Source of the DNA: Octopus vulgaris
Lineage: Eukaryota
Assembly (NCBI GenBank): GCA_951406725.2
Contig: OX597837.1
Coordinates: 10,850,001 to 10,914,000, forward strand
Direction: 5' to 3'
Length of the DNA stretch: 64,000 nt
The translations under genes and the position numbers were made by a program. Under the pieces are notes generated by a model, which saw only the letters and a program-made list of their open reading frames with translations, was not told the DNA's origin and made no database searches. Position 1 is the first letter of the stretch, and each line of letters starts with the position of its first letter. Positions 1 through 34,356 of this stretch are shown here, one piece after another.

Positions 1-69
1 CGACTATAACTACGAGGACAGACATGGCTACCGAAAGGACTCGGAGTTCCGGGATAGAGACAGGGACAG
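1..69 (+). CDS. RBM5: RBM5/RBM10-family RNA-binding protein, exon a (5'-truncated by the window), RD-rich N-terminus
   Basis: The frame from position 2 reads DYNYEDRHGYRKDSEFRDRDRD. Donor AG|GTAAGG at 70, phase 2, joins exon b in frame. Confidence 0.85.
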
Positions 70-99
70 GTAAGGGCCCTTTTTTTTCCCATCTTATAT

Positions 100-1110
100 G
101 CATTAGGGCAATCAGCTCACAATCATAAGGTCATCAGTTCAATTCCCGGCAGTTCATTGTGTCCTTGAGCAAGACACTTAATTTCACGTTGTTCCAGCTC
201 ACCCAGCTGGCAAAATTCAATTGTACCTGTTTCTTTATTACCCACAAGGGGCTAAACATAGAGGGGACAAACAAGGACAGACAAAGGTATTAAGTTGATT
301 ACATCGCCCCAGTATGTAACTAGTACTTAATTTATCGACCCCGAAAGGATGAAAGGCAAAGTCAACCGCGGCGGAATTTGAACTCAGAACGTAACGGCAG
401 ACGAAATACCGCTAAGCATTTCGCTCAACGTGTTAACGCCTTTGCCAGCTCACTGCCTTTTAACAATTCACTTGTACCTGTAATTCAAAGGGTCAGCCTT
501 GTTACACTCTGTGTCATGCTGAATCTCTCTGAGAACTACATTAACCCGTTAGCATTTAAACCGGCCATATCCGGCCAAAAGTATTCTGCCTGTTTTATGT
601 TCAAACTGGCCAGATCTGGTCTCTCACACCAACCCTACAATATCATTTTAAAAATTAACATTTTCGTTACCATATTTATTTTGAGATGCTCTGTATTTCA
701 TTCAATTAATTTTAAAAATAACCAAGAATTTAGTCAAAGAACTTAGTTATCATTAAGCTAGTGTTGGGAACATAAATTGTGATTAAGGTTTGGTGGAAGA
801 TTTTAATTCGAAACTTATGAAAATAAGACATTTGTACTACAGAGCCAGAGGCGGTTTTGGCCAGGTTGGTATCAAAAGGGTTAACAGCTACCTCATCAAA
901 TTCTCATAGCTACAAGATAATGCATGATTAGTTCAAAACAATGTGGATGAAAAAGCATTAATTTTGGTAGAATAATGTGAACACTAAAGGGTTAAGGGTA
1001 CGTATGTCTGTGGAGTGCTCGGCCACTTGCACGTTAATTTCACGAGCAGGCTGTTCCGTTGATCAAATGTTCTGGAACCCTCATCGTGGTGACCGACAGT
1101 AAAGTGCCAG
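100..1110 (+). mobile_element. Nested repeat cluster: a tRNA-derived SINE interrupted by a second SINE (231-458, minus) and a piggyBac-like MITE (545-991), which itself contains another MITE (659-880)
   Basis: The outer SINE body matches the uninterrupted copy at 62617-62992. A 17-bp near-perfect TSD AATTCA(A/C)TTGTACCTGT flanks the inner SINE. TTAA duplications at 541/992 and 655/881. Confidence 0.8.
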
Positions 1111-1721
1111 TAGAGGTATTTACAGCCTGAAGGTCATGCATCAAATGTCTGCTGAATCAGGGCTGCTAGCTTTGCAATAAATGACATCATCACCATCACC
1201 ATCTGTTTTCCATGCTGGCATGGGTTGGAGGATTCAGCAAGAGCTGACATGTGAGAGAGCTACACCAGGCTCCAATTGTCCAATTTGGAATGGTTTCTAC
1301 CCCTGGATGCCCTTCTTAACACCAACCATTCTACAAAGAGTACTGAGTGATTTTTATGTGACACAAGCATCTCTGCTTGAATCAGTTTCTCTTGTCCTGC
1401 TTGAAATAGTAGCAAAATCGCCCTCAAATCACATGCTGTAGCCTTTAGAAGTGAGGATGCTTTAGGTAAGATAAGTAAATAATTAAGTTAGGTATTTTGG
1501 TTTGCTAAATTCTTGATGTGAAATCCTGTGTTAAAACAGATTTTGTTGTATGTTGCAGTAAATACCTCTAAATCAAAATTTTTTTTTTCATGGACCCCTA
1601 AGGTGCTACTACAGACCCAGTTTATCATTTTGCTTGTGTGAACCCCATAAAAAATCGTATAATGGACCCTGGTTGGGAGCCACTGGTTTAACGTGATGTA
1701 TATACTTGTTTCATTATGTAG

Positions 1722-1932
1722 ATCTCATCAGCCTGACAGGAGGGTGCATGACAGACGCAGAGGTCGGGTGGTCGACCGATCTCGACGCGACCGGGATCGT
1801 GACAGGGACCGTGATCGAGACCGAGGCTTCGACCGAGATCGAGACCGGAGCAGAAGTCGTGATGGACGAGATAGAAAGGACCGACCCTCTCGGGAACGAG
1901 GGGACCGATACGAAGAAGGCTTTGATTGTGAT
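1722..1932 (+). CDS. RBM5: RBM5/10-like exon b, RD/RS repeats
   Basis: Acceptor tgtag, donor gtaagt at 1933. Reads RSHQPDRR...RDRDRDRDRDRGFDRDRDRSRSR...GFDCD; phase 2 to 0. Confidence 0.9.
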
Positions 1933-2042
1933 GTAAGTTCAAAATATATATTTGCTATCTGTTTATTTTTATCTTTTATCTTTTGTTTGGCCCTGTCATT
2001 AGACTGTAGCCATGCCGGGGCACTGCCTTGAAGGGTTTAGTC

Positions 2043-2533
2043 CAGGGGTCGCCACAGGGGGTCAATAATAGCCAAGGGATCAAATAGGGGTCAGCATGTG
2101 AAAGACCAGCTTGCCCAGATGAACTGCCTGAAATACTTAGCCAGCGCCATGCCCATCCCCCCCATTGATGTTGTCAATTTCAATAAGAGATATTCAGGCA
2201 ATATGATGCGTTTTCCACATTTTCTAACCATGAGAATAATTTCATTAAAATTAAAAGTTTAATTATGTATACTCATACACGTAGTTTTAAATATAAAAAG
2301 TGTGTCATCGTCAATAGAATTTCTTAATTTGTTGTACATGTATATTTTAGCTAACATTTTAATTGCCAGCATCAGTACCCTGTACGCATTTCAGGTATAG
2401 TACGGCAGGGTAAGGTATTAAGATATTTTAAATGAGGAGGGTGATCGATGTGGAAGGAGAAATGGCTAAAAGGGGTCGATGCAGAAGAAGTGGCTAAAAG
2501 GGGTCAATGGTCGAAAACGTTTGGTGACCCCTA
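2043..2533. mobile_element. hAT-like MITE
   Basis: Termini CAGGGGTCGCCA ... TGGTGACCCCTA; flanks GTTTAGTC / ATTTAGTC give a 7/8 TSD. Confidence 0.65.
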
Positions 2534-3186
2534 ATTTAGTCAAACAAATCAACCCCAGTATTTTTTTTGTATTTTTTCAGTCTCATTTTACTGAACCGCT
2601 AAGTTACAGGCATGTAAGCACGCCAATACTGGTTGTCAAGCACTGCTGGGGGACAAACACACAAAAAAAGAAACATATATATATATATATATCTCAGGCT
2701 TCATTCAGTTTCCATCTATCAAAATCTGCTCACAAGGTTTTGGTCAACTGAGGCTATAATAAAATACACTTGCCCAAGGTGCCATGCAGTGGGACTGAAC
2801 CCAGAACCATCAGGTTTCATGAATAAAACATCTTTAGCAGTATACAGTAATAACAAGACGGCTACTTGGAAGAAATGAAGGACTTGCTCTTTAGTTTGGC
2901 TGCTATTTCTAGCAGATAGCATGATCACTGAACGGCTGCTTGTGCAATCTTTCTCTTTTAGTCTGTGGATTGATTTTCCTAATTTAATGGATTGGTGTAT
3001 TTAACAGTGGTGGTCATTTTATTATTGGTAACCTAGCTGCTCGCCCCTCTATCATCAGCCATCAGGTAGTAATTTTACCTTGTCCTTATTCTTAGTTTAA
3101 GTTTTGAAGAGTGCAGTTGATATATATATTGTTTTTGTTTTGTTTCATTGTATATATATATTTTGTTTTTGTTTCATTGTTTGCAG

Positions 3187-3336
3187 AGTTCTAGTCGTGA
3201 TAGCGGGGAAAGTTTCAGGGACCAGGACAGCGGCCGAGAAGGTCGAGAGGACCGAGCTGGTGAGCGATGGATGACCGACACACCTACACACACCATTCTT
3301 CTAAGAGGACTTCCAAACCAGATTGACGAAAAGGAT
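3187..3336 (+). CDS. RBM5: RBM5/10-like exon c, start of RRM1 (RNP2 ILLRGL)
   Basis: Acceptor ttgcag, donor gtgagt. Reads SSSRDSGE...PTHTILLRGLPNQIDEKD. Confidence 0.93.
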
Positions 3337-3405
3337 GTGAGTTTGTTTTTTTCTTTTTCTCTTTCTCATTGTGCACATGTATGTGTGTGTGTGTATATAT
3401 ATATT

Positions 3406-3662
3406 ATCATCATCATCATCGTTTAACGTCCGTTTTCCGTGCTAGCATGGGTTGGACGGTTCGACCAGGGTCTGGGAAGCCAGGAGGCTGCTCCAGTCTG
3501 ATCTGGCCGTGTTTCTACAGCTGGATGCCTTTCCTAACGCCAACCACTCTGCGAGTGTAGTGGGTGCTTTTTACGTGCCACCGGCACAGGTGCCAAGGGA
3601 GTCTGGCAGCGGCCACGATCGGTTGGTGCTTTTAACGTGCCGCTGGCATCGGCCACATTCGG
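3406..3662 (-). mobile_element. SINE family 3 ((GAT)n tail, V-domain-like GGAAGGGCATCCAGCTGTAGAAA, GTGCCGGTGGCACGTAAAA modules)
   Basis: Multicopy in the window: also about 19274-19455, 30403-30670, 36800-37120, 45445-45630, 46121-46256 (minus) and 63500-63786 (plus). Confidence 0.75.
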
Positions 3663-4035
3663 GTATGTATATATATGCATATATGTATATATATATGTGT
3701 GAGATTGAATGTTGCAAAAGGTGAACAATGGTTGATTCCATATATTGGTTTCAAATTTTGGCACAAGGCCAGCAATTTCAGGGAAGGGAGTAGGTTGATT
3801 ACATTGACCCCTCTGCTCAGCTGGTTCTTATCTTATCAACACCTGAAAGGCGAAGTCGAACTTGGCGGGATTTGAACTCAGAATAAATGCCACTAAACAT
3901 TTTGCCCTGGTTTGCTAACAGTTCTGCCACCTCACCACCTTACTGATTCCATATATTCATGTGTATGTATGTATGTATGTGTGTATGTGCATGCATGTTA
4001 CGACTCGTAATTTTATTTCTCTCTGTATCTTGTAG

Positions 4036-4102
4036 ATATTGACGGAACTAATGATAATTGGACTCAGTGTCAAAGACGTTCGATTAATGAGGAAAAGTTC
4101 CG
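4036..4102 (+). CDS. RBM5: RBM5/10-like exon d, RRM1
   Basis: Acceptor tgtag, donor gtgagt. Reads ILTELMIIGLSVKDVRLMRKSS(G), matching the family DVRLM motif; phase 0 to 1. Confidence 0.92.
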
Positions 4103-4786
4103 GTGAGTGTTTTTTTTTCCTTTTTCATGTTATTTCATTTATTTTTCATAGATAAATTTATAAACAAATCTACTCACTGAGGGGGTTCTGAGAATATTGA
4201 AACATATATATATGTATATATTATATATATATTTATTATATGATATATTTATATATATCTATATATAATATATGTATGTGTATCTTGTATAAAATTGAAG
4301 GTGTGTTTTGTTGGATTTTTTAATGTATGTATGTATATATATATATATCTATATATATATTATTTTTTCTTTGTAAACTATGTTGGCTTTATTCACCAGG
4401 GTCTTTATTATTATTATTGTTATTATTATTTTGTAAAAGTTCTTGAATATATGATATGTAACCAAACTAATCTTCTCTTATTCACAGCTGTTTATCTTTG
4501 GAAGTCTTGTATAGTTAATCTGTTATGATCTGTATTGATATCTGCCTTCATGAAATCACTGTCTTCTAATCTTGGTTTATACTCTTCACTGATTCACCTG
4601 TCTTCAGTGTTTTGGGATTGAGCCGGTTTTTACCTTTGCAAAATGGTGCTATTTTTGTTGTCGTTTAACCCTTACACTGCTCCTGCTTGGGCAAACATTG
4701 TTTTAGTCATTACTACTTCCTTTGTTGTTTTCAAACATAGTGTATCTAAGACAATATTGTTGAGTGTATCTTGTTTTTTTTGCTGG

Positions 4787-4828
<42 letters not shown>

Positions 4829-7800
4829 GTGACTCTAAGATGCTTTCATATACACCTTCTCCCTATATCTGTGTGTGAGTTCTTTTATTTGTTTCAGTCA
4901 TTTGACTGCGGCCATGCTGGAGCATTGCCTGTAGCCAAACAAATCGGCCCCAGGACTTATTCTTTGTAAGCTTAGTACTTATTCTATCGGTCTCTTTTGC
5001 CGAACTGCTGCATTACGGGGACATAAACACACCAACATCGGTTGACAGATGATGGTGGGGGGGACAAACACACACACACACAGACACATATATACACGAC
5101 AGGTTTCTTTCAGTTTCCATCTACCAAATCCACTCACAGGGCTTTGGTTAGCCCAAGGCTTTAGTAGAAGACACTTTCCTAAGGTCCCTCGCAGTGGGAT
5201 GAGAACTCGGGACCATGTGGTTGGTAAGTAAGCTACTTACCACACAGCCACTCCTGAGTAAGCACATGGATGTGAAACAAGGTGGGGAAAAAATAGCATT
5301 CGACGACCTGAAGTAGAGTGATATGCTGTGTTATTAAAGTTGTGAAAAAACATCACAGAAATATCACAAAGATCTGCTACTCAGAGTTTCGCATTCCCAT
5401 TTGTCTGTGTTGTGGTTAAGAATTCTTATGTGTGTGTGTAGTGCGAATTTAATTTTCTTGTCCCAAAGTTTATGCATAACAAATCATTGGCTATTTGGCT
5501 CATACTTAGATCACTGTATTGAGTATGTTGTGTCAAACCAGCCCTAAGATGTATGGAGCTGTGTGGGAGCATAACAAAAGGGCCCCTTTGGTCCACTTAA
5601 GATGTTTTGTCTTTGGAAGTGTGTCTGTGGGTTGCTCTGTTCTTTTATTGTCTTTGGTCATCAGCTGCACCAGCAACAATGCTTCTGCCGAATTACTATT
5701 CTCTACTAGTAAGGATTATCTGTTCCTATGTATAGTGGCTGTCTCTTCCCCACACCTCTTGTGTCTGTGCTTGGTCAAATTTTCTGAAAGGTCTGAACTT
5801 TTATGGTTGTATTTAATAAATTTGTGCCTTTTATTTTCCTTCCACTTCCCAAAAGTCTTTGGTCAACTTCTGTTGTTGAAAACCCACCACTCCTCCCCAC
5901 AGAGGCCAGATTTAGTGACTTCCCCCCCACCTAAATTGTGGATTTTTGCAGATAACCTTGTTAACTCTTTAGCTTTCGGATTACTCTGTCTGGTGTAATG
6001 CTTGTTTATCCACATTGTTTTGAATTAATCCTGCATTATCTTATCACTTCCAAGAGTTTGGTAATCTGATTGTTTGTTTTAACAATGGCATTGTAGGACA
6101 GGTGTGAAATGTTGGATCTAGCCATTTTGAACATAAAAAAGGCAGATTATTTGGGCCAGATATGACTGCTTTAAATACGAAGAAAATTCATTTTAATTGT
6201 TACTAAATTGGACAAACTTTCTGGTCTTTTGCCTAGAAACAAATGTATTAATAGGAGGAAATTGCGATAAACTCCAAAATTGTGGCATATTTCACTTTAG
6301 CTCCAATCCAGTCCTGCCCACCACTGTTATCTCTCTCATCAACATCTCAATTATCTTGTTGTGAAGATACAGAGCTGAAGACACCTCTGAAAGGGGGTGG
6401 GGGGCACCACGTCAAAACGGTACAGGAGTAGGGGCCGAAACCGGACATGGTTCCTCCTGATGATGTCTTGAGCTAACTGGATCCTATAAAGGAGCTGTTG
6501 TGGTAGCAGACCACGAAACACGGTTGTAATTCCTTCCTTAGAGTCTTTTTAAATTCTTGGCTTCTTATCATTCCTGGCTGGTCTCTCGTTTGCACTCAGG
6601 TGTTTTTTGTAAACAGAAATAATCCATTACTTTCACTTTCAGCTTATCACCGTCTGTTTTCTTCTGGTAAGTAATGGCAAGTTTGATGCTTGACTCGTCA
6701 CTCTTTTACTCAATCCTACCTTAACGATGTATTCATTTGCATTAACCATTTTTTTATCATTTTGAACAGGATACTGCTGTTAGCTGTGTGTGTGTCTGTG
6801 TGTGTTCATTAGCACATCAATGTAAAGTGCTTTACAGTCTGATCAGTTCATATGTAACAATTATTTTGTAGATACATTGATTATTCTGTAAGAATTTTAA
6901 TTGCTTAATTAGTTAAAATGGGAAAAAAGATGAGAAATTTAAAGTGTAGGTATTCGATCCTGCAGCTGCTATTCTGTATAAGATAATTGCTGCTTCCATG
7001 ATTGGATCAAAACACCTTGAGTCTACACACCTGAAGACATCAAAGTAACCATGCTTCACCTGCAGTTAGTAGGCTATTAATTAATTAATTAATTGATTGA
7101 TTGACTATTACACTGTAGTACTTGTCCTGTGACTGATTTGTCTTATATTACAATCAGTGGTTGATTCCTTTGGACAAAGTAACTTATTTTTTTCCTTTAA
7201 TTTGTTTTCTTTGACTTGATGACAGGTGAATTCTCATAAAGTACGAAGTGACTATCGTAGAAAGAAATCATTTATCACTTTCATGATTTTTTATATTCTT
7301 TATGAGTCAGCTGCTGATGTACTTCAAGTAAAATTTTCAATAGAATCTAGATTTTTCTTGGAGTTTAGTAAAATATCTCTTACTTTATTACTGACGTACA
7401 TTAAAATGTGTCACTCTGGCTCAACTGTTTTTTGCTTTTTTTTTAAATCTGGCAGTTTCAAGAAATAAGGATTAGAAAAATTACTCTGAATAATTTTTAT
7501 TTGAATTTCCCAAAGGAAGGATTGGTCATCAGTGGGGTCAAGCTAGCAGAATCATTAGTACACTGGACAAAAATGCTTAGCAGCATTTCTTCCAGCTTCA
7601 TGTTCTGTATTTAAATTCCACCAAGGTCTACTCTGCCTTTGATCCTTTCAGTGTTGATAAAATAGGTACCGGTCAAACACTGGGGTCAGTGTAAGTGACT
7701 AACCCCACTCTACTCAAAGTTACTGGCCTTGTGCCAAAACTAGAAAGTATTATTATGTTCTGAAATTAAATTCTGTCATGGTCAGCTTTCTTTTCCGTCC

Positions 7801-9253
7801 TTTTGGGGTCAATCTAAAAAGGGTCAGTTAAGCACTGGGCTTGATGTTACCAACAAGCTTCCCTGCCAAAGTTCAGGCTTGTGTTTATAAATCCTTAAAA
7901 TCCTTTAAAATGTTTCAGCCCAAAAGCTGCGGCCATGCTGGGGCACCACCGTTGAAAGGATTTTATTAAAATTGTCTCCTCATCTTGGTTGTTATTAGGT
8001 TTAAAGGTTTTAATTTCCATTAACTAATTGCACCATAGGACAACACAGTAGTGAATATAAAGGAACAGACCCCTTTTGGTTATGACCATGGGACTGCACC
8101 TAGAAAGTTCCCCTCCAAGGCACAGGTCTAGGCAAGGTTGTTTTATGGAATACCAGCCTCCTCTCTCTGCACCAGTGATCTTATCCAAGGGAAAGGCAAA
8201 GGGGTCGATACAGCTTGGCCCCAGTGGCATCGCAACTCATTTCTACAGATGAGTAAACTGGAGCAACGTGAAATAAAGTGTCTTGCTCAAAAACTCAACA
8301 CACAGCCCAGTCCAGGAATTGAACTCACTATCACATGATTGTGAGCCCAACACTCTAACCACTGAGCCATGTACTTGATTATAAGCATTAAGTATTTAAG
8401 TGTAGTAGGTTCAGTCCCAGAGTCAGTATACACATTCTCTGTCTGGTTGGAGCTGAAAAGCCAAGCAACTTGTAGGAGAATGATAAATTGAGAATATCTC
8501 TGATGTGGACAACAGAATAAGAACACAACCATCCTTGTGGATTTTATAAAGGGTTCAGTTTGAATTCCTGGAAATTTTACCTATCACAGTAGACACCTGG
8601 ATAAAGTATAAAAAACCTGGTTAAAGTATTAAAAAACTGCATCCCTCTACCAAACCATGTTGAGCCAGTGTGGCAGAGAAGGCTCAAGTATGATCTCCAG
8701 TGCAAATTCATGGCCTCCACATCAGACTGTGGTTGGTGGGGGGGACATACTGAGCCCTTCGTCCTCCTACACTGATTGAATATAGGCAATCCAGTTTAGT
8801 TCAATGCTTTAGTCTGTTTAGATTTACTATGTTTTGTTTTTTATAACAAAAACAAGTTGGTCTAACTTTGGTCTCCATGTTTTTTTTTTCTCTCTCTCTT
8901 TAATTCTGTTTTGAATTTAATTTTTCGCTAAGAATCTATATTATATTTGTTCTTTGAAAATTTTTTTTTTTTTTTTAAATGTGAGAGAAAATTCTTAAAT
9001 TAAAGAAAAAAAAGAGAAAAGAAATTTTTTTTCTTTTCTTTTCTTATTAATCTCAAATCTCGCCAAAGAACCAAATGGTAAGTTTCTCAGAGAACCAACC
9101 AGCCTCAGTGAGTGGGTTTTTAGTCATTTATTATTATCTTTTTTTTTTTTTTGACCTTGGGTTTCACGTGTTCTGGTTGGTTTCAGATGATAACCGCCAT
9201 ATTTTTTTAGAAATTAGTTCCACTAATGCGGGACATTCTGAATACTTACGCAG

Positions 9254-9327
9254 GTGCATCCCGTGGGTTTGCTTTTGTGGAGTTTCAGAACGTAGCAGAT
9301 GCCCAGCGCTGGATGGAACAGAATCAG
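9254..9327 (+). CDS. RBM5: RBM5/10-like exon e (74 nt), RRM1 RNP1
   Basis: Reads GASRGFAFVEFQNVADAQRWMEQNQ, the family-typical SRGFAFVEF...WME.NQ. Acceptor cgcag lacks a pyrimidine tract; donor CAG|GTCTTA is weak. Confidence 0.95.
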
Positions 9328-9604
9328 GTCTTACACAATTATCTAAGACTTTTGTACCGGTACAGTAGACCCCAAAAAAAAAAAAAAAAAAAAAAAAAAA
9401 TTACCATGCCCCCCCTTTCCATACAGACACACACACATGCATACATACACACACACATACATACAGACTGACAATCCCACACACCTATGTTTGCTTGCAT
9501 ATATATATATATATAAATATATGTGTATATTTAGATATTACATGCATATATATATATGTATATATATTTGTTATATACAGCAGACATGCTCATACATTGC
9601 TACA

Positions 9605-9647
<43 letters not shown>

Positions 9648-12600
9648 GTATATGTATACATACACATATACATACGTATACATGCACACATACATATGCA
9701 CACACAGTTACACTCATACATGCATACAGTCATACATACACACTTATATACACACTCATATACACACTCATATACATCCTACATGACTCCCAGTCAATTG
9801 CTGTCTCAAGCAGTTTGTACGCTGCTCAATTTTATTCTTTCTTAATGTTGTTTGTTGTTTCTGTTTCGTTTTTTTTTTTTTTTTCTCCATATACTTTGTT
9901 TAAATAAAGGTTTCTGTCTAATTTTAAATAACCAAAATGCTACTACTACTACTGCTACGATATCATTTATGGTCCTCATTTTTTTTTTATTTCCCCTCTC
10001 TCTCTCTCCTTACTCAGATCAGTATCTTTAGCTTCACACACACTCACACGTAACCTGTGTGCTAGACCAAATGCCATACCATTCATCTTGCATTCATGAT
10101 TCCAAAGTACCGCCTTCCTTTAATCATTTTCCTGTTCTATCTTGTTATAGTTGATGTTATTGTTAAACCCCAGGTCAGCCCTGATTCAAGCACACCTACG
10201 ATCAAAAGCACTCCAGCTGTGACAATCCTATCTTTTCAGGAGTAGGAAGACTACATTATTTAATGCAGGGGTTTTCAACCATTTTTCTGCCCATGGACGC
10301 CTTTGGTTATTTTTTTTATTCTGGTGGACCCTCCCATATTGATTTAGTGATTTGACGTTTAAAAACTAGTTTTATAGACACTTCATTTGAAATTCCTGTT
10401 TACTTGTGTCGGCTTGCAATAGAAATCTTTGAGGGAGTATCTTTGTGGTGCACCTGAGCACTGTATACAATAATTTCATTATTATGATTATTATTTTTAT
10501 TATTGTCTTTCACTGGCCAGAAACATGTTGAACTAAACTTATGTAAAACTCAAGAGAAAGGAACATAGTTGTTCCTTGCAATAAATTCATCATCATTATC
10601 ATCATTGTTTATCGTCAGCCTTCCATGCTGGTATGGGTTGGATGGTTTGACAGGAGCTGGCCAGGCAGAGGACTGCACCACATTACTGTGTCTGGTTTAG
10701 CAGGGTTTTCATGGCATAAGCACAGCATGATCGCAATGACTGAAGCAGTAAATGAAGAATGTAGACCTAGATATATTGAAAAAGATAGGACGGGTGTGGC
10801 TGGAATGCTTTTGGTTGTACTGTTGCTCAGTTGAAGCTGACTTTGGACTATAAACTACAACAACTCCATAAGATTGAACTTTCCACAGTTTAATAACACA
10901 TTGGGTCATAATCTCATTGCTGGAGATTTAGCCTTTGTCTGGTGTTGAGGACGTATGAGCTTGTTGAAAGCCTGTATCAATTCCTCATCATTCTGTCCTT
11001 TTGGTTGAGGTGAAAATGTTCAACTTAGCCATGATGAAGGCTTGGTGCCAATTAATACCCACAAAATCCATTGTTTCAACACATTAGACCCAACATTTTA
11101 TTTATCTGACCTGTTAACGCTACATTAATAGAAATAAAATAGTTATGAATTTCTCCAGCCCTGATTTTGTTTTTGTGTTTTTAGAAAAAGGGTATGCAAA
11201 AAAAAAAAAAAAAACACTCAAAACAGGTTTTCTATCTGAGAAATATTCCGTGGGAATGGGTCGGTCGTTTTTGTTCAGTTTTGTCTCCATTTGTCTCGTC
11301 TGTATTTTTGTTGATAAATTCCAACCTCACCATTTCATACACAACAACACTCTTTGCTTACAAAACTCTTTCTTTCCCTTCAAATCTTTGAAGATTTCTA
11401 AATTAAACTTATTTTTCACCAATTCACCACATGCACATAACCTGCATATAAAAAAACTGCACCACATTATTTTATTTTATTTCTTCTTTTTTTTCATTTT
11501 TGTTTTATATATATTTTTTTTTTGTAAACTGAAAAACTGAAATGTTTAGAGAAAATTTCAAATTAAAAATAATAATAATAAATGCTATCTGCTTTCTTAA
11601 TTTAATATTGAGCTTTTTGCAGCATGCTTCCTCAGTTGAAATGATGCCCTATAAAAAAAATTTTAAAAACGAAAGAAAGAAGATTTAGTTTAAACAATGC
11701 ATGAGAATTCTTCTTGTTGTAATTATATATTCTGGTTAACATCTATTAGTTGATAGTGTTTCTCTCTCTCTTTCTTTCCCTCCTTTGTTCTTGTGCGGGT
11801 TCAGTTTCTGAACTTACCGAAATAGTGCAGTGTGTCTGCCGGCATTATTGTTTGTTGAATAAGTTGTAAGGTCTTTGAAACAATGATCGAGAACAGTTTT
11901 GACTTGCATTTCAAAACATGGTTGGGAAAACGCATAAAGAACAGTCAACCAGTCAGATAAACATAGACAGACAGACAGACCAGTGGGTAGGTGGGGGAGA
12001 ATGTTGGAAATTGCTGTCAACCTATATTTAGTTATTGTTGTTGTAGTTCTGTTATCTAGAATGGAATTCTACCCCGTTCTCTCTTTTCTCTGCCCATCAG
12101 TCATAAAATTTTGTTTTGGGACCCAGATTTTTTTTTTTTACTATTGAAAACCCACCATTACAAAATGCATCCTACCAAGGAGCCTCGACCAGGACTCTCA
12201 ATCTACTCGAAGTTGCTGCCAGATCTCCCTCGAACCATTGTCTAATGTAGTTTTGGATAAGACTGTTTGAAAATAAGACAGGGTGGTCATGCTTTATTGA
12301 TGAATAACCAACACTGAGTTAAGCACTAACACCACCACCACCAACGACAACAACATCGTTTGTTGCCTGTTTTCAGACCCTGGATGTATGATATAATAAA
12401 ACGAATGAGAGGCTGAGCCCTACACAAGCAAAGCCAGTTTCATATTATGTTGCTTCTGTGTATGGATGCCAAACCTCAAATCTGCCATTTGCCACAAATC
12501 CTGTGAGTGGATTTGATAGATGGAAACTATATTGAAGCCTGTCGTGTGTGTGTGGTTTATTTGTACATTCCTGTTTGGCAATGCAAACAGAATTAGCTCT

Positions 12601-13785
12601 AAACTTGAGTTAAACTATTCTACAAAAAAAAAAAAATAAATAAAAAAAAAACCTTCAAAGCAGTGCTCCAGCATGGCTGCAGGTCAATGGCTGCAACAAG
12701 TAAAAGATGTGAGAAGATACTTTCTTCCTAGCTGTAGGGTTCGAATTAAGGGAGATTTGGCTGCTATTTTCTTGTGGGTTGACCAACCATCTAGATGCAC
12801 TCCATCTTAGCGTGTTTTGTTTCTTATTTGAAGTGTGTTACGTCTCTGCTGTTTCTCAATTCTTTATCCCACCCGGTGCCTTCTGCCCCTTGTCCATATG
12901 TCGGTCTTTCACTTTGGTTAGAGATCATGATCCCCCCCTCGTCATGCAGTTCTGTCTATATATATATTGGTTATAATGTGTCTGAATCTGGGTAGTAATG
13001 TTTTCTCCTTGTCTCCTCTCTTTTCTCATGCACACACACACACAACACACTCAGACGTTGGCTGTTCAGACATTAGATATTTCTCTTTCAATTCATTCAG
13101 GCAAACATTACAAATAGTTTTTTGCTGCACACATGTATATGTTTATTTATTTATATATATATATAAATGTGTGTGTGTGTGTCTATGTATTTGTGTATGT
13201 ATGTATATGTGTGTGTGTGTATATATATGTAAATATGTATACATATGTGTGTATGTATATATATGTGTGTGTGTGTATATGTATATATATATGTGCATAT
13301 ATATGTGTGTATATATGTATATGTGTATATATATATGTGTCTATATGTGTGTGTGTGTGTGTATGTATATATATAGTACCCTTCGTTTTGTTTTTTTTAA
13401 GTTACACATTATCTTTATTGTGATTTCCTGTTATTTTTATTTTTTCCGTTCCTCTACACCTGCACATCACATCAAACACATCCACACACCCATTCCCACA
13501 CAACTTTTTCCTTTTTTTTTTTTTTTTTTTTTTCAAAGATATTAGCTAAACTAAAATATTTAGCATGCAGTTGCTTGTTTTGAAACTAATAGCTTGTCTA
13601 CTTTCACTTTCCTCTCTTTCTCTCTCTCTCATATTCCACATTTAAGATATTCAAATGTAGTTTCAAAGAGGTTTTTTTTTTAATATTTTGTGAAAGAAGG
13701 AAAGGGCTTCAGTACATTTTTAAGACATCTCCGTTTGAGATGAGCACTATAAGAAATAATAATAATAATAATAATAATAATAGCA

Positions 13786-14146
13786 AGAGCACTCAGAGAG
13801 CATAAACTTCTGCCAAGGCAACATCAACGTCCTCTCAATGATTAGCTGGAGATGTTTTTTAAAACGAGAATATCTGAAATAAACTCGATTGCTCTCACAA
13901 ACGAGAATACTAAAAATGAACCTGATTGCTCTCAGAGATTAAGTAAAAAAGACAGGAAAAATAATCCAGAATCTTTGTCCGGTACCGGATCGATCCCAAA
14001 ATCTAATCAGTTCATGCCAGTCACGAGGCCAAACATCCTTGAAAGTTTCATCGGAATCTGTCCAGCGGTTCTTGAGATATCTTGTCCACGGACAAACAAA
14101 CACAAATGAAAACAATACCTCCATCTTTGCTAAAGCAGAGGTAATA
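13786..14146. mobile_element. Non-autonomous DNA element, Helentron/HINE-like; second copy about 31500-31865
   Basis: Two ~360-bp similar copies with ACCTCCGCC-type subterminal repeats and a terminal small hairpin. The superfamily assignment is tentative. Confidence 0.5.
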
Positions 14147-15381
14147 ATAAAAATCATTAGTCTGTCCCTCCTACAATCTGTTTCTAGGGCATTCCTGTTC
14201 TTTTTTTTTTCCTCTCTCTCTCTCATTAGTCCCTTATTTCAATGAACTAATTGAAATTTTTGTTCCGAACCATCCTAATTTATTTATTTAATGTGGATTC
14301 TATAGCAGTAAGCAACCAAATGTTTGTTCTTTGCAAAGCGAAATTGTGTCATGGCTTCCCAGCAGAACTTGCACATGATTTCCTGTCTGTCATCTCTTTC
14401 TTCGTTCTGTGCTCTTCTGCCTCCTCCTCTTCCTCCTCTTTTCATGCTACCACACCCCCAAACCCCATCTCACCACCTCAGCTCAGCTTTGCTCAGCTCC
14501 AATTTTTTATTTTTTTTTTATTTCAATGTCTTCCCTTGCCAGAGTTTTTTTTTTTTTTTTTCCTTTTTTTTTCTTTTTAATCACCCTGCCAATTAATTCA
14601 TTAATTAACTATGATGATGATGTTGATAGCTGCTATTATTAGTGCTCTCTTACTACTACTATTACTACTACTGTCCTTCTGAAACTTCTAGTATAACTCA
14701 CACACATATACACATACACAACAACAATATCCATCTCCACGCACACATACACCCTTATCACCAGTACAGGGTTTCAAACCCTGTCGGTTGATATCTAATT
14801 TTTTTTTCCCCCAAATATTTTAACAAGGGTTTTTTTTTCGTTTATAATTTTTTTCATACAATTTATCAATTATTGGCTTAGATAGGAAATCATGCCTCGT
14901 TAGCTTAATAAATTATATTATATATATATATTAAAAAAAAAGCAATTGTACATTTTTTTTCTTGATAGATTTTTTTTTTTAACCATAAACTTTTGTGTTT
15001 ATTTCTACTTTAGAGATGTTACTGTTTTCTGTAGAATAAAAAAAAAGAAAAAAATGAGAGAGAAAACATATGCATGTATATATATATATATGTATGTATA
15101 TATATATATATGTATGTATATGTGTGTATATATATATAGATATTTATATATATATATTTATATGTTACTTGTATCTTTTGTCTACCTACATTGATATTAA
15201 GTACTACTACTACCTACTACTACTACTTCTACTACTACTAGACGTCACGTTGACCTGAGGCTTCCGAAGACATACTTGATGTGTGTCCTGAACCTAGATC
15301 ATGGCATTGGCAAAATGGATGATGTGTTGCTACCACATGGTTTCCGTTTCATTGATACTGACTTCCTTCTTTTGCTTCCAG

Positions 15382-15483
15382 GGGTCGCTCTACCTGCAGG
15401 ACCAGTTCCATGTCACTATGCACTACAGTCAGCCCAAAATGGGGCCTGAGAAGGTACAGAAGTGTGACTGGGTTTGTACGAAG
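15382..15483 (+). CDS. RBM5: RBM5/10-like exon f, end of RRM1 and start of RanBP2 zinc finger
   Basis: Branch-like TACTGAC plus pyrimidine tract and ccag; donor gtaagt. Reads GSLYLQDQFHVTMHYSQPK...DWVCTK. Confidence 0.93.
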
Positions 15484-15519
15484 GTAAGTAAGGAGTGTGC
15501 CTTGTTTTTTTGGGTTTTT

Positions 15520-15727
15520 TTTCACTTGTTTCAGTCATTTGACTGTGGCCATGCTGGAGCACTGCCTTTAGTTGAGCAAATCGACCCCGGGACTTATTCT
15601 TTTGTAAGCCCAGTACTTATTCTATCGGTCTCTTTTTGCCGAACCGCTAAGTGATGGGGACGTAAACACACCAGCATCGGTTGTCAAGCAATGCTAGGGG
15701 GACAAACACAGACACACAAACACATAA

Positions 15728-15758
<31 letters not shown>

Positions 15759-15928
15759 CATATATACGACAGGCTTCTTTCAGTTTCCATCTACCAAATC
15801 CACTCACAAGGCATTGGTCGGCCCGGGGCTATAGCAGAAGACACTTGCCCAAGATGCCACGCAGTGGGACTGAACCCGGAATCATGTGGTTGGTTAGCAA
15901 GCTACTTACCACACAGCCACTCCTGCGC
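15520..15928 (-). mobile_element. SINE family 1 (tRNA-like head, CORE-like GGCACCTTGGGCAAGT, internal (TA/TG)n, GTAAAAGA tail), full length
   Basis: High-identity copies at about 4880-5255, 28565-28945, 46280-46688 (minus) and 18235-18530, 41085-41385, 51030-51412, 53571-53850, 55061-55365 (plus). Confidence 0.85.
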
Positions 15929-16184
15929 CTATCTTTTATTTCCTTTATCTTTTTTGCTCATGCCACATAAAAGCACCTGGCACATTCTGTAAAGTGGTGG
16001 GCATTAGGAAGGGCATCCAGCTGTAGAAACCATGCCAAAACAGACGACTGGGGTCTGGTGCAGCTGGTCAGCCCAAGCCAGCATATACAATGGACATTAA
16101 ATGATGATGACTTGTTTTAGTCATTGGACTGTGGTCCAGAAGGGTTTTAGTCAAACAAATCAACCCTGGTACTTATTTTTTTAA

Positions 16185-16406
16185 CCCTTTAGCATTTAAA
16201 CTGGCCATATCCAGCCCAAAATATCCTTCTTGTTTTGTGTTCAAACTAGCCAGATCCAGCCTCTCGCACCTAACCTACTATGTCATTCTAAAAATAAACA
16301 ATCACTTTTTCAAATTCTCTTAAGCTACAAGATAATACATGATTAATTCATAAAAATACAAATAAATAAGCATTATGTTGGACACAATAATCTGGATGCT
16401 AAAGGG
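16185..16406. mobile_element. piggyBac-like MITE family B
   Basis: TTAA TSD with CCCTTTAGCAT...ATGCTAAAGGG TIRs. Other copies at about 545-991, 23981-24203, 33037-33218, 45190-45410. Confidence 0.8.
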
Positions 16407-16775
16407 TTAAAGTCCGGGGTTTATTCTGTCGGTCTCTTTTTTGCTGGACTGTTTCGTTACTGGGACGTAAACAAACCAGTGTTTATTGTTAAGCCGTTAG
16501 GTTGTGGGGGACAAACACACACCCACACATATCACATGACCGGCTAGGCTATCAGATGTTGTTACACATTGCTGGTCACAATGCACTTTGCATCATTTTA
16601 GCCTTTGAATGGTGCCACCCCACGGGCTAGGCAAGCAGGCCACCATTCCCCCCTTGATCAAAGGGGGGGGGAGTGGAGCAACATGAAATGAAGCGTTCTG
16701 CTCAAGAGCACAATGCACTGCTCGGCCTGGGAATTGAACCCATGATTTAGTGATCATGTGTGCAATAGCCTAACC

Positions 16776-17177
16776 TATTTCTTTACTACCCACAAGGGGC
16801 CAAACACAGAGAGGACAAACAAGATCAAGATGATTATATCGACCCCAGTGCGCAACTGGTACTTTATTTATCGACCCCCAAAAGGTTGAAAGGCAAAGTC
16901 GACCTCGGCAGAATTTGAACTCAGAGCGTAACGGCAGACGAAATACCTATTTCTATTTCTTTACTACCCACAAGGGGCTAAACACAGAGGAGACAAACGG
17001 ATCAAGTCGATTATATCGACCCCAGTGCGTAGTTGGTACTTTATTTATCGACCCCCGAAAGGATGAAAGGCAAAGTCGACCTCGGCGGAATTTGAACTCA
17101 GAACATAGCAGCAGACGAAATACTGCTAAGCATTTCGCCTGGCGCGCTAACGTTTCTGCCAGCTCGCCGCCTTCACA
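16776..17177 (-). mobile_element. SINE family 2 (GCCTTTCATCCTTTCGGGGTCGATAAA central domain), tandem dimer
   Basis: One full and one 5'-truncated unit inside a single 13-bp TSD CAATAGCCTAACC (16763-16775 / 17178-17190). Monomers at 231-458, 20420-20650, 22390-22614, 29247-29420. Confidence 0.85.
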
Positions 17178-17324
17178 CAATAGCCTAACCACCACACCAC
17201 ATTCCTTCACTATATACAAACTCTCTCTCTCAGGCACAAACCCACACGTATATATATGTATATCCACATATACACATTGTAGAAAAATAGTTTCTAATAT
17301 TTTTAAAAATTATTTTCATTTCAG

Positions 17325-17385
17325 TGTGGAGCTCACAATTTCAAACGAAGAGATTTCTGTTTCCAATGCAGTGTGTCACGAGAAG
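17325..17385 (+). CDS. RBM5: RBM5/10-like exon g, RanBP2-type zinc finger
   Basis: Reads CGAHNFKRRDFCFQCSVSRE, completing W-x-C-x2-C-x3-N-x6-C-x2-C; splice sites ttcag / gtaagc. Confidence 0.95.
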
Positions 17386-17649
17386 GTAAGCTCCTTTACC
17401 TGTTCTTTTTATGCCCCCTTTTGTGGGTCAGTGGGAGGGGGATCTCAAGAGATTTCAGTCTTTTACTTAATCAGAATGTGGCTCTGTATTTGCTTTAGTG
17501 TGTGTCGTCATCATTTCATGTGTTGGCATGGAAACCATCATTGGCAGATAACGATGGTTTGTTGTTTTCTTGTGGATTTTTCAGAGTAGGAGGAAGAGGA
17601 GGAAAAGCAGTGACTAACAATATTTTTATTTTTCCAGCAAGTACAGGCA

Positions 17650-17700
17650 TATAACTCCAGACATGTTTCAGTTTTATTCTGACCTCATCAGTAAATTATA
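17650..17700 (-). ncRNA. Minimal type-I hammerhead ribozyme-like motif (Penelope-type)
   Basis: Minus strand reads TATAATTTA-CTGATGA-GGT-CAGAATAAA-ACT-GAAACATGTC-TGGAGTTATA: both core boxes, palindromic helix III ACATGT, GUC triplet and a plausible helix I. Confidence 0.55.
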
Positions 17701-17894
17701 AACTTCATCTTACGTACAAGATTTGACACCAGGAAATACAAACATTTAGAGAATAGATAATGCAGCTGGCATTTATCCAAACTATATATGTGTATAGAAC
17801 TACAAATATATGATTCAGTTGTAGAATCTATCTTTTAGATAATTTCTAGTTCTTCATGATACGCTTCTAATTGCTTCTTAATATGGTTTTTCAG

Positions 17895-17954
17895 AATCAG
17901 AACGAGCCAAAGAAGGAGATGGATTTGACCAAGTTGGAACAAACCCTTGCAATA
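17895..17954 (+). CDS. RBM5: RBM5/10-like exon h, linker
   Basis: Splice sites ttcag / gtaagt. Reads ESERAKEGDGFDQVGTNPCN; phase 1-1. Confidence 0.88.
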
Positions 17955-19501
17955 GTAAGTTTTAGGTTTGCCTTTTAACATTTTTTTTTTTGGGGGAGTC
18001 CCTTCGGTTTTTTACTATTCAGTGTTGCACAACCTGTGCGCAGTACGTCTGGTGGAGTGTCTTGCTCCCTTCACAGTAGCAACAGTGTGCAGGGATCGGA
18101 TTACTACATTAGTCCACTTTTTGAAGGATGTGAAGGTATGATAGCTGGACATTAGGATGTACATTTGTTTTTCAAGTCAGATTCTTGTTCTATTAGTGTC
18201 TTTTTTCAATCTAAGTTACAGTTGCCCAAGGTGCCACTGTATGGCACCTTGGGCATGTGTCTTCTACTATAGCCTCAGGCCGACCAAAGTTTTGTGAGTG
18301 GATGGAAGCTGAGCCAGGCCCGTCGTATATGTGTATGTGTGTATATATGTTTGTCCCCTAACATCGCTTGACAACCGGTGGTAGTGTATTTATGTCCCCG
18401 TAACTTAGCAGTTTGGCAAAAGAGACCGATAGAATAAGTACCTAGGCTTCCAAAGAATAAGTCCTGGGGTCAATTTGCTCGACTAAAGGCGGTGCTCCAG
18501 CATGGCTGCAATCAAATGACTGAAACTGGTTATCAAGCAGTAGGTGGAACACACACATACATATACTATAAGCTGCTTTCAGTTTCCATCTACCAAATCT
18601 ATTTACAAGGCTTTGGGTCATCCTGGGGCTTTTGTAGAAGACACTTGCCCAAGGTGCCATGTAGTGGGACTGAACTCAAAACCAAGTTGTTGGGGAGCAA
18701 ATGTCTTATCACTCAGCCAAACCTGTAATTAAAGATTGTAATCAAAAATCAATCTTTCATAAATATCTGGTAAATTAGACACATTCTACTATAAGTGAAT
18801 CCAGATAAAATTCATCATCATACATTCGTTTTCCATGCTGGCATGTGTTGGACGGTTTGACAGAAGCTGACCAGCTGAAAGGCTGTTCAGGCTCCATGTC
18901 TTGTTTTGGCGTGGTTTCTATAGCTGGATGCCCTTCCTAATGCCATTTATAGGACAGAAATCAGCCCAAGTTAAATTTGAACCTAGTGCAGAGAGATGGA
19001 GGCCCCTCCTAATATGCCAACCACTTTACAAAGTAGACCCATCATTCACAAAATGCATAATACATACACACACATACATGGATATAAATATACAAAGATA
19101 GCAACCAATCCAGGTACAAAATTACTGTACCTGACATTTAGAGAAGAGAGGGTGACACCCCTGATCCTTTTTGTAGGGCCCTTTGGCTGGTGGAGTCAGG
19201 ATGTGAAAGGAGTTATTCTCCAACCAGGCATGAGTGCTATATATGTCTATCGTTAAAGATTGTCTTTCTACTTCATCATCATCATTTAATGTCCATTTTC
19301 CATGCTAGCATGGGTTGGACGGTTTTGACTGAGGGCTGGCAACCAGATGGCTGCACCAGGCTCCAGTCTTGATCTGGCAGAGTTTCTACAGCTGGATGCC
19401 CTTCCTAACGCCACCCACTCCGAGAGTGTAGTGGCTGCTTTTTACATGCCGCCTACTTCTTCCTTTAATTTATGTTTTTTTCCTATCTATTTTATTTACA
19501 G

Positions 19502-19766
19502 CTTTGATATTCCGTGGTCTGGACGCCCTGACCACTGAAGAGACGTTGTCGCAAGCGCTGAGCCAGCAGATGTCGCTTACACTGAAGAACATCAAGATTA
19601 TCCGTGATGAACTAACGAACACGTCACAGGGCTACGGCTTTGCCGAAATGGGTTCCATCCTCGAGTCTACGCAAGTCTTGGAGCATTTACGCCAGATGAA
19701 CCCACCTTTTGAAGTGGAGGGCAAACTAATCTTGGTAGCATTTGCCAAGAACACCTTTAGTACAGT
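19502..19766 (+). CDS. RBM5: RBM5/10-like exon i, RRM2
   Basis: Reads TLIFRGLDALTTEE...NIKIIRDELTNTSQGYGFAEM...PPFEVEGKLILVAFAKNTFSTV; splice sites tacag / gtaagt. Confidence 0.95.
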
Positions 19767-19805
19767 GTAAGTACCGGTTTCTCTAAACCCCCTTTTTTTT
19801 TCTCG

Positions 19806-19837
<32 letters not shown>

Positions 19838-21240
19838 TATACTATAGTGGTTGTGTGGTAAGTAGCTTGCTTCCCAACCACATGGTTCTGGGTTGCTCCA
19901 GCCACTGAGCTGGCAAAAATGAGTAATGCTGCGATGGACTGGCGTCCCGTCAGCTGGAGAACACATACGCCATTGAAAGTGGGGAACTGGGCCCATGAGC
20001 CTTGCTACGCTTTAAAAGGGCGCATTTTTTTAATTTTTGTATATTATATGTATGTATGTATAGGATAACATGCAAATTTATGACCCATGTTTTGGAGTCT
20101 GTAGTTGCTTGTGCCATGTAAACGACACCCAGTACAGTCTGTGAAGTGGTTGGTGTTACAAAGGGCTTCCAGCTGTGAAAAACCATGCCAAAGCAGACTT
20201 CACTGGGGCTGTTGCCATGTAAAAAGCACCCAGTCCACTCTGTAAAGTGATTGGCATTAAGATGGGCGTAAAAATCCCATACCAATGCAGACAGGGGAGC
20301 CTGGTACAGTTCTCTGGCTTGCCAGCTCTTGTCAAACCATCCAGCCCATGCAAGCTTGGAAGACAGACGTTAAATGATGATGGTGGCAGAGGTGGCATTA
20401 TTATTATTATTATTATTGAAGGAGGCGAGTTGGCAGAACCGTTAGCACGCCGGGTGAAATGCGTAGCCGTATTTAGTCTGTCGTTACGTTCCGAGTTCAA
20501 ATTCCGCCGAGGTCGACTTTGCCTTTCATCCTTTCGGGGGTCGATAAATTAAGTACCAGTTACACACTGGGGTCAATGTAATCGACTTAATTCGTTTGTC
20601 TGTCCTTGTTTGTCCCCTCTGTGTTTAGCCCCTTGTGGGTAATAAAGAAACAAATTATTATTATTTGTTGGCATAGCTGTGTGGTGAGGAAGCTTGCTTT
20701 GCAGTGTTACATTCAGTCCCATTGCATTGAAACCTTTGTTTGTGTATGGAGGTTATGTGTTTATATGTATGTGTGTGTGTGTTTGTCCCCCTCCATTGTT
20801 TAACAGGTGTCGGTTTGTTTACATCCCTGTACCTTAGCAGTTTGGCAAAAGATACCAATAGAATAAGCACTGGGGGAGGATAAGTGGGGTGCATTTTGTT
20901 TGACAATCCTTCAAGGTGATGCTCCAGCATGGCTATGGTCCAGTGACTAAAACAAGTATAAGGTGTGTGTGTGTGTGTGTACATATGTATTGTAATTTTC
21001 TTTGTTTTTTTTTTTTTATTTTTTTTTTTTACCATGAACTAATTAACCTGAGGATGTAAACTTGATCATGACACGTCAGTGGGGGGATTACAGATTATCC
21101 TAATCCCTTCCTCTCCTTTAATTAACGTATATGTTTTTGCATGAAGTTCATAAATATCACAAACCTATCTGCTCTGCTAATGTTGATTTTCTTTTTTTTC
21201 TTTTTTTTTTCTCTCTTTTTCCTTCTTTTTCTTCCCATAG

Positions 21241-21289
21241 AATGGCAACACTCAACAGCCGACCTAACTCATACACGGGAGGTCAAATG
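21241..21289 (+). CDS. RBM5: RBM5/10-like exon j
   Basis: Long pyrimidine tract plus catag; donor gtgagt. Reads MATLNSRPNSYTGGQM; phase 2 to 0 is needed to keep frame. Confidence 0.85.
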
Positions 21290-21426
21290 GTGAGTAAGGT
21301 AATTTCACTACGATCGGATGGTGTGGGAAACCATAATTGATGATCTCTTAAACTACTACTACTACTCGTTCTCTCTTTCCTTTCTCTCTCTCTCTCTCTC
21401 TCTGTTTTCCATTCCAAATGCATATA

Positions 21427-22248
21427 CAAGGTCTGATCAATAGGTATCCGGACTGTTGCCATAGCAACGAAGCTAAAGTAGGCAAAGTCAAGCTGCTTGG
21501 CACAGATTGACCTTGAACTCTGCTGTGCAGGCACACTAAGTTTTAAGGTTCTAGTTCGCTTTCACTGTTTGCAGCAATGCTTGGAAGGAAGGTGTGTAGC
21601 GTGTGATCGTTGCGTTGACCGTGACAAAGTTGTCATGGCGTTACTTGCTCTGAGGCCTATGCAAAGTTGCAGAAAGTGTGTAAAGAGGAGTGTATGTACT
21701 CACACAAGTGTACAAGTGGTTCAGATGTTTCCAGGATGGCCCAAAAATGTCAATATTGACAAACGTTCTTGGAGTGCAGCTGTGAGGGGAAATCATCGAA
21801 TCCCCATCCGTGGGTTATCAGAGGATGTGAAGATTAGTTATGGTTCAGTTCAGTCCATTATCACTGAAGATTTGGGTATGAGACGCGTGTCTGCCAAGTT
21901 TGTGCCAAAACTGCTTTCATCTGACCAAAAAGACACATGGGTTTTCAATTGCACAAGATTTCCTTGATTGTCTTGAGAACGATGAAAACTTCTTGAAAAC
22001 TCTGCGTAGGCCTCTGAACAGGTATTGTCAAGCTTTTAGCAAAATCTGATTCAGATTCTCTGCTCATCTTTCTCTGCCATGGTCAATGTGACAATCACAC
22101 GCTACACACCTTCCTTCCATGCTCAGCTGTAAACAGCAGAAGTGAGTTAGCTCGTTAAAACTTAGTGTGCAAATTTCAAGCTCAATCTGTGTGCTTTAGC
22201 TTTGTTCCTATGGCAACAGTCCAGGTGCTTATTGATCAGGCGACGCAT
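21427..22248 (+). mobile_element. Internally deleted mariner-like element with ~200-bp inverted arms
   Basis: Arms ~21427-21625 and ~22076-22248 are reverse complements. The internal remnant ISYGSVQSIITEDLGMRRVSAKFVPKLLSSDQK is a mariner HTH plus WVPHEL-like linker. Confidence 0.8.
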
Positions 22249-23774
22249 CACTGGTGATGAAGCAAGCAAGTATATGCATGTCTGTTTCTTTGTGCCTTAT
22301 GACTTAGGGAAGAGAGGGTGACACCCCCGATCTTTTTTGTAGGGCCCTTCGGCAGGTGGAATCAGGATGTGGATGGAGTTTTTTTCCAATAAGGCGACGA
22401 GCTGGCAGAAACGTTAGCGCGCTGGGCGGAATCATCATCATCATTTCGTCTGCCGCTACATTCTGAGTTCAAATTACGCCAAGGTCGACTTTGCCTTTCA
22501 TCCTTTCGGGGTCGATAAATTAAGTACCAGTTACGCACTGGGGTCGATGTAATCGGCTTAATCCGTTTGTCTGTCCTCTCTGTGTTTAGCCCCTTGTGGG
22601 TAGTAAAGAAATAGGAGTTATTCTCCAACCAGAGACCTGTCCGTAATGCTTGCACCAGAATGGACACAACTAATGGCATCCAGTGAGCCAGGCCATTGTA
22701 TTAAAGCAAAGCAACAGATTGTGTTGACCGTCCAGCAACACGTGCAGTCTGTTCAACTGGTGTGTGTGTGTGTGGTTAGCTGCTGCTCTGTTCCATTGGA
22801 GCCAAGTCAGGTTTACAGCCGTGTGCGTGTCTCCTTATATTGACTGCATAACAGTTGTGAATGAGTATCCTTAATTTCCAATCTTCGGTGAAAACATGTC
22901 TGGCCATTGGTAAATATTTACCATGATCGGAAACAGTTAAGGCTTTGGTGACAGATATGGCATCTAACCGTATAAAATCCGCCTCGGCAAATTCTCTCCA
23001 ACCCGTGTGGGGCATGCAAAACTGAATGTTAAAAAGGACAACTGCAGTGTGAAGGGAGGTAATTCCAACTGAACTAAATAGCATCTTGTTCAATAGACAC
23101 ACTTGGGATCTTTTCGGTTTGAACGGCAGTTTTTAACATAATTTCCACGTAACTAAACACTTTTAAATTTCGTATACTGGTAGAATGTGTTTATAAAACA
23201 TCTTTTTCTCTTGGCCTTATTGAGAAAATTCTATAGTTTGTAGTCTCGCAAGCTGCATGGCTATGATGACCTTGCTAGTGCTGTTGGCATGAAAAAAAAG
23301 CACAGAATACCCACTGTTAAATGGTTGATGTTAGGAAGGGCATCCAGCCATAGAACCTATGCCAAAGTAGGCAGTGGGGCATGATGCATTCCTTGGGCCC
23401 TTTGAACCATCCAGCCCATACCATCATAGAATATTGATGGTGGTGATATATACATGATGAGCTGCCATGCAGTTTCCACTTACGAGTTGCATTCTCAAGG
23501 CATGGGCCAGCCCAAGACAATAATAAAAAAAACTTGATTATGGTGCCCCAGTGAGATAGAACCCAGAACTACATGATTATGAACCAAAAATCATATCCCC
23601 ATAGCCTTTTTATTTATTCCCATGCTTTAGTTCTTGGAGCCCAAGGACGATTGCATATAAATTTAGAAAATAAAACTCTAGGGTAGATCTTGAGGCTAAT
23701 TAATGCCTAAGAAGCCATAGATTCCTGTCAGTATGTTTACTAATGTCTTTCTGTTTTCTTATTGTTTTTCTCAG

Positions 23775-34243: not shown

Positions 34244-34356
34244 GTAAGTTCCTGTTGTAAACACCCTTCTTCTGCCTGCAGAGTCTTGACTGCCAAATTG
34301 CAAAGCAGATTGTAATTACCCTCTACTTCTGGTATTTGGTTTAGAAATACACCACT

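Follow-up and report, generated by a model that had tools for sequence, protein, structure and literature searches.

The closest described system is exon 6 of human RBM10 and RBM5, which is subject to AS-NMD (Sun et al. 2017, PMC5737846). In the available sections of that paper, RBM10 exon 6 corresponds to c.503-576, i.e. 74 nt, and the mutagenesis primers place its start at AG|GT and its end at AATCAG|GTT, giving a non-consensus GTT donor. The same sections give RBM5 exon 6 products of 188/262 nt and refer to RBM5/RBM10 mutation in TARP syndrome and lung cancer. Four forms of human RBM5 are described in the accessible part of another report (RBM5, RBM5-delta6, RBM5+6, and RBM5+5+6; PMC2174484). 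Unproductive events of very long standing are also found in other splicing-factor genes, namely in SRSF5 (animals and fungi, PMC4379411, accessible part) and, according to similarly partial text, in Smndc1 with its poison exon. In the available text on C. elegans fubl-1/fubl-3 (PMC13247117), skipping of a non-triplet essential exon in an invertebrate RNA-binding-protein gene yields an NMD substrate. No report of the RBM5/10 exon 6 event in an invertebrate was found in the literature; subscription journals, supplements, and splicing databases may hold one. To our knowledge, alternative-splicing events common to protostomes and vertebrates are few and come mostly from SR-type genes. No invertebrate case is mentioned in the accessible portions of an RBM10 review (PMC10445532) and of papers on C. 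elegans rbm-5 (PMC6284560) and zebrafish upf1 (PMC7354994).

We analyzed the RBM5/10 gene of Octopus vulgaris in a window of 64,000 nt, the whole stretch of DNA under study. A 74-nt exon of this gene resembled human exon 6, as far as the available text of PMC5737846 permits comparison, in its length, borders, codon phase, non-consensus donor, premature stop upon skipping, and conserved flanks. Unlike the human pair, the octopus has one gene and presumably no paralog cross-regulation; its exon lacks a pyrimidine tract, its flanks are mostly dissimilar to the human ones, and the octopus side is known from sequence. The likeness to SRSF5 and Smndc1 lies in a long-kept unproductive event in a splicing-factor gene, but the exon here is an essential one, either left out or kept together with adjacent introns, and no poison exon is involved. 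The fubl-1/fubl-3 event is alike in kind, whereas the octopus gene belongs to another family and the fubl case has been genetically tested. The features referred to below are as follows.

1..42672, + strand: RBM5/10 gene with 22 coding exons inside the window; its start codon lies 518 nt before position 1
4036..4102, + strand: upstream exon (exon 5 homolog)
4103..9253, + strand: upstream intron, 5151 nt; 5' end found in spliced RNA; retention leads to a stop at 4152
9187..9253, + strand: three candidate upstream AG acceptors; exon starts at 9187 and 9211 would lead to the stop at 15447, a start at 9218 would be in frame and add 12 aa
9223..9253, + strand: weak 3' splice site with branch-like CTAAT (9223-9227), no pyrimidine tract, TCTGAAT (9237-9243), and in-frame ATG (9226)
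9236..9290, + strand: predicted 17-bp stem, acceptor 9236-9254 pairing with exon 9274-9290
9254..9327, + strand: 74-nt RRM1 exon, encoding the RNP1 peptide and homologous to exon 6 of human RBM5/RBM10
9328..9372, + strand: non-consensus donor GTCTTA and the adjoining intron, of which some 42 nt are conserved in a squid/cuttlefish-like contig
9328..15381, + strand: downstream intron, 6054 nt, with a stop at 9468 if retained; its homolog is kept in P0035, P0037, P0039, and L003
15382..15483, + strand: downstream exon (exon 7 homolog); premature TGA at 15447-15449 upon skipping of the 74-nt exon

Homolog mapping yielded a 22-exon model in one open frame. With the first 518 coding bases taken from the neighbouring stretch L024, the full frame comprised 1124 aa with a single stop. 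RRM1, a RanBP2 zinc finger, RRM2, OCRE, a C2H2 finger, and a G-patch were all found in this frame, as in the RBM5/6/10 family. Homologs of the protein carried PF00076, PF17780, and PF01585, and its best matches in the PDB were RBM5 and RBM10. The RRM2 exon was 99% identical to that of O. bimaculoides RBM5, which identifies the gene as its ortholog in an Octopus. When five candidates were scored, this exon had a single match in the octopus genome, and cross-regulation between paralogs is therefore unlikely in octopus. Judged by sequence, the octopus case would be one of the autoregulation type, and the vertebrate paralog circuit is unlikely to apply. A UPF1 gene is present in the octopus genome.

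The peptide encoded by the 74-nt exon aligned at the protein level to residues 139-161 of human RBM5 and to RBM10. The octopus exon begins AG|GT and ends CAG|GTCTTA. For RBM5, the product sizes together with the skip primers, as given in the accessible sections of PMC5737846, put both junctions at residues homologous to the octopus borders. A comparison of exon borders with the human genes had been proposed as a check on the locus, and its outcome was positive: within what those sections contain, length (74 nt), borders, and codon phase equal those of human RBM10/RBM5 exon 6. Donor position +3 is a pyrimidine in the octopus and, going by the primer sequences, in human RBM10 alike. The sequence TCTGAAT was found at -17 of the octopus acceptor and at -18 of the human RBM10 exon 6 acceptor, by eye and from one primer. 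The motif TCTGAAT..CAG is not rare in itself, with two occurrences in the window against 0.64 expected and 19 of 100 shuffles reaching two.

The original prediction described weak splice sites, two exceptionally long flanking introns, and a TGA followed by many junctions after skipping, and all three were borne out. With a leave-one-out matrix built on only 20 sites, all from the RBM5/10 gene itself, the donor of the 74-nt exon scored -1.5 and its acceptor -0.87, each being the lowest of 21. The acceptor contains 10 pyrimidines in 20 positions (13-19 in the other acceptors) and no pyrimidine tract; acceptors 17325 (-0.18) and 28073 (0.18) are nearly as weak. The latter ends in AAG and has an AG-free zone of only 13 nt. 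The flanking introns are the two longest of the coding region, the other 19 of 21 measuring 509-2485 nt. Skipping leads to the TGA at 15447, with 15 junctions lying more than 50 nt downstream. As 12 of the 20 internal exons of the gene shift the frame and skipping would produce a stop upstream of a junction in 11 of 20, the frame shift of the 74-nt exon is unremarkable taken alone. A minor, U12-type intron was considered and rejected: the donor consensus of this type is GTATCCTT/ATATCCTT, and the donors GTGAGT (4103) and GTCTTA (9328) differ from it. The in-frame intronic ATG at 9226 overlaps the branch-like motif, and the short proteins P0040-P0042 start at the same place. Going by the reading frame, this ATG could start a protein without the first half of RRM1.

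Conservation of the flanks was judged from back-translated read-through peptides, with one comparison per side. On the donor side, the 14-residue read-through tail of P0035, a squid/cuttlefish-like record (81% to P0027, 56% to octopus), back-translated onto the window from 9328 onward at a cost of 4.0, compared with 14.5 for the best of the 20 other donors and a minimum of 12.5 for 600 random GT sites. Over about 42 nt, octopus and the squid/cuttlefish-like sequence differed by one substitution and two single-base gaps. On the acceptor side, the nine residues preceding the exon in the bivalve-like P0040, whose exon peptide is nearest to that of Potamilus (23/24), fitted 9226-9252 with three mismatches in 27 (at least 24 of 27 nt compatible); the best of 2260 other AG sites had nine mismatches. 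Control read-throughs at other junctions (two tails and four heads) gave no comparable match. The donor-flank element was not matched in the bivalve-like contigs (cost 16-17), and the acceptor element was not seen by eye in the metagenome contigs L002 or L004. The two comparisons span approximately 270 and more than 500 million years of divergence, respectively. Conservation of the flanking intron sequence in other molluscs, which had been suggested for examination, was thus found for 27 nt at the acceptor (bivalve-like) and 42 nt at the donor (squid-like). These two flanks constitute small, testable cis elements.

A product of exon skipping was found in a clam. P0088, recovered with the exon two places upstream of the 74-nt exon as the query (30 matches), is encoded by a single 2211-nt Logan contig from a venerid clam, not from octopus, and represents the exact skip product of the 74-nt exon. 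It is spliced across the two preceding exons, and its frame breaks off precisely where exon 5 meets exon 6. Read in the shifted frame, the following exon of Ruditapes P0061 accounts for all 24 positions of the tail, among them the stop; at the second-best of 838 positions, 14 stayed unexplained.

Retention of the flanking introns was evident from several sources. In octopus RNA, the X1 contig (1226 nt, identical to the window, depth 22.3) was spliced over 3337-4035 and continued unspliced to 4185. X1 contains 32 of the 32 sampled words of 9050-9372; among the listed sequencing runs containing this segment, none is recorded as RNA. Raw reads were counted in three runs of one study, using about 6% of each; the organism is a related one, with five fixed differences over 217 nt of exon. 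The ratio of bin 4103-4136 to bin 4069-4102 was 7.8/45.2 (17%) in X21, 6.0/47.0 (13%) in X22, and 2.0/28.0 (7%) in X23, and the control bin 4001-4034 had no reads in four of four runs. These octopus values reach 100 nt into the upstream intron and are set against a single control bin at the far end of one intron, the remaining control bins being masked or filled by repeats. SINE-like repeats at 3401-3941, which occur in as many as 20 copies in the window, drew thousands of RNA reads. Long introns are more often unspliced anyway, and the signal at the 5' end of the upstream intron may alternatively stem from an extended exon or intronic polyadenylation.

Moreover, 35 short proteins with an RRM1-like motif were sorted by their structure, in a kind of search that favours truncated products and yields no frequencies. 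In seven of them exon c was spliced to exon d, c and d being the two exons before the 74-nt exon: three of these entered the downstream intron (P0035, P0037, and P0039), one left at the upstream junction (P0082), one skipped, and two, belonging to one cluster, were spliced normally. Three short proteins (P0040-P0042) carried the 74-nt exon plus both flanks. Fragments ending in the control intron after exon c numbered 23 and may derive from DNA or RNA; the rest were one unspliced protein and one RRM2 fragment. P0040 and P0052 each lie on a single 4616-nt Logan contig, and if this is the same contig, both flanking introns are kept while it is spliced downstream.

A metagenome scan gave at least 22 loci; 11 were inspected, of which four were RBM5/10-like and seven bacterial-type RRM proteins. 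The same 74-nt exon is shared by contigs L002, L003, and L004. L003 has an 856-aa frame once its 164-nt downstream intron alone is removed. In L002, the 743 aa starting with the 74-nt exon are spliced, yet upstream intron sequence is kept; L004 contains both flanks and may be genomic DNA. L002 and L003, which may be arthropod-like, fell outside the mollusc-nemertean group with support of 100/100, L003 on a long branch. In a distant eukaryotic RBM5/10 (L005:803-1054), introns lie elsewhere and none is found on either side of the peptide of this exon.

Among the records found, retention was commoner than skipping. Coverage of both flanking introns had been named as a check in the original prediction; what was seen is the start of the upstream intron in octopus RNA and flanking introns kept in P0035, P0037, P0039, L002, and L003. 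The protostome records fall into the same three classes as the human RBM5 variants in the accessible part of PMC2174484 (downstream intron kept, both flanks kept, exon skipped). Unlike the cloned human variants, the protostome forms are known as assembly contigs, and a spliced transcript with both introns kept is only deduced. At 15301-15483, all eight O. bimaculoides RBM5 models read (P0001 and P0017-P0023) have their start within the downstream intron or next exon and lack RRM1, as do Tegillarca and Mizuhopecten models; these may reflect retention or an annotation fault. The O. bimaculoides and Tegillarca models starting in the downstream intron were set aside as evidence, since assembly or prediction faults would look alike.

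The 74-nt exon corresponds in octopus to exon 6 of human RBM5 and RBM10. It is likely an inherited dial by which a share of the transcripts is sent into early-stop forms, either lacking the exon or keeping an intron, and the RBM5/10 protein itself likely controls it. It is probably an ancient unproductive-splicing switch operating by retention as well as skipping; every skipped or intron-keeping form has an early stop. The conserved weak sites would make inclusion dependent on regulator levels. An excess of RBM5/10 would bind the flanks, as human RBM10 was shown to, and splicing would be stalled or redirected; the retained and skipped forms, all with an early stop, would then leave less functional protein. 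We infer that selection holds the splice sites weak for regulation, that NMD eliminates skipped transcripts, those with retained introns being detained or decaying, and that the circuit was already present in the bilaterian ancestor. By analogy with human RBM10, the RBM5/10 protein would promote these events on its own pre-mRNA. The original prediction had placed the vertebrate circuit in a mollusc and before the protostome-deuterostome split. Exon homology, the clam skip product, retention, and weak-site conservation lend this partial support; paralog cross-regulation, with one RRM2-exon match in the genome, is unlikely to carry over.

If the regulation is as proposed, RBM5/RBM10 would join the few splicing events kept between protostomes and vertebrates. 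The exon 6 feedback would date from before the RBM5 and RBM10 paralogs, making cross-regulation a by-product of duplication. Feedback could be tested free of paralogs in invertebrates with a single gene, and the switch may explain why several mollusc gene models are without RRM1.

A less likely explanation is that the exon is conserved and regulated but that its output is mainly nuclear intron detention or another control (temperature, stress, or other RNA-binding proteins) rather than RBM5/10 feedback via skipping and NMD. The preponderance of retention among the records found would fit this, as would the X1 contig, which continues into the intron and not into the next exon, and the predicted acceptor stem could work without a protein. 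Nevertheless, the skip product exists in the clam, skipped RNA is expected to be rare because NMD removes it, and human RBM10 acts on this very exon via its flanking introns in the accessible text of PMC5737846. The stem was examined by pairing and folding calculations. Intron-exon pairing at the acceptor of the 74-nt exon was 0.76, the highest of the 21 acceptors (next 0.68). Folding of 9180-9372 gave a z of -0.54, and values of -3.05 and -2.03 came from windows picked afterwards; z was -0.60 on the donor side, 0.31 for the L002 acceptor, and -0.98 for the L004 acceptor. By eye, one forced change in the bivalve-like peptide keeps a pair of the stem and two break one. It is speculative that an acceptor-hiding stem sets the basal weakness of the exon. 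Still more doubtful than the detention explanation is a single device of the bilaterian ancestor with a stem as its core, in which the TCTGAAT element would pair with the RNP1-coding exon and hide the acceptor; the coding sequence would be half its own silencer, and the cephalopod stem could respond to temperature or A-to-I editing.

Independent origins of unproductive splicing on an exon that is itself old, one each in vertebrates, in molluscs, and in other protostomes, are improbable. Separate origins gain plausibility from the ease with which a frame-shifting RRM1 exon can be skipped; flanking elements differ across lineages, and SR genes show repeated independent gain (PMC4379411, accessible part). 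Against this, the same exon is affected in all lineages out of 20 candidates, 11 of which would give a premature stop, and human RBM10 and octopus have in common the pyrimidine at donor +3 and the 7-mer at -17/-18. We consider it very improbable that regulation is absent altogether. In that case, slow and noisy splicing of two long introns would be at work, and the flank match would come from a splice signal of a general kind or from a short in-frame extension of the N-terminus starting at ATG 9226. The introns are indeed long, one control bin was counted, and the nine residues before the exon are open from an ATG in octopus and in P0040-P0042. On the other hand, conservation exceeded the nulls well on both sides, frameshifts on the donor side exclude coding as the cause of the match there, the retained intron of L003 is merely 164 nt, and a Patella model (X4) begins within the exon and not at such an ATG. 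A regulated, inherited switch, probably under RBM5/10 control, is the reading that we favor.

Additional observations were made elsewhere in the window. An alternative donor 9 nt downstream (21289-21298) and a tandem CAGCAG acceptor (23775-23778) could account for small isoform differences between O. bimaculoides P0001 and P0020. Both models join 37764 to 42547 and omit two G-patch exons (38493-40629; 213 nt, in frame), which may be a real isoform or an assembly gap. Downstream of the RBM5/10 gene, a GC-rich block (0.56-0.57) occupies 47000-49000, and exon-like or transposon-like open frames were found 3' of the gene at 43286-43630 and 59956-60111.
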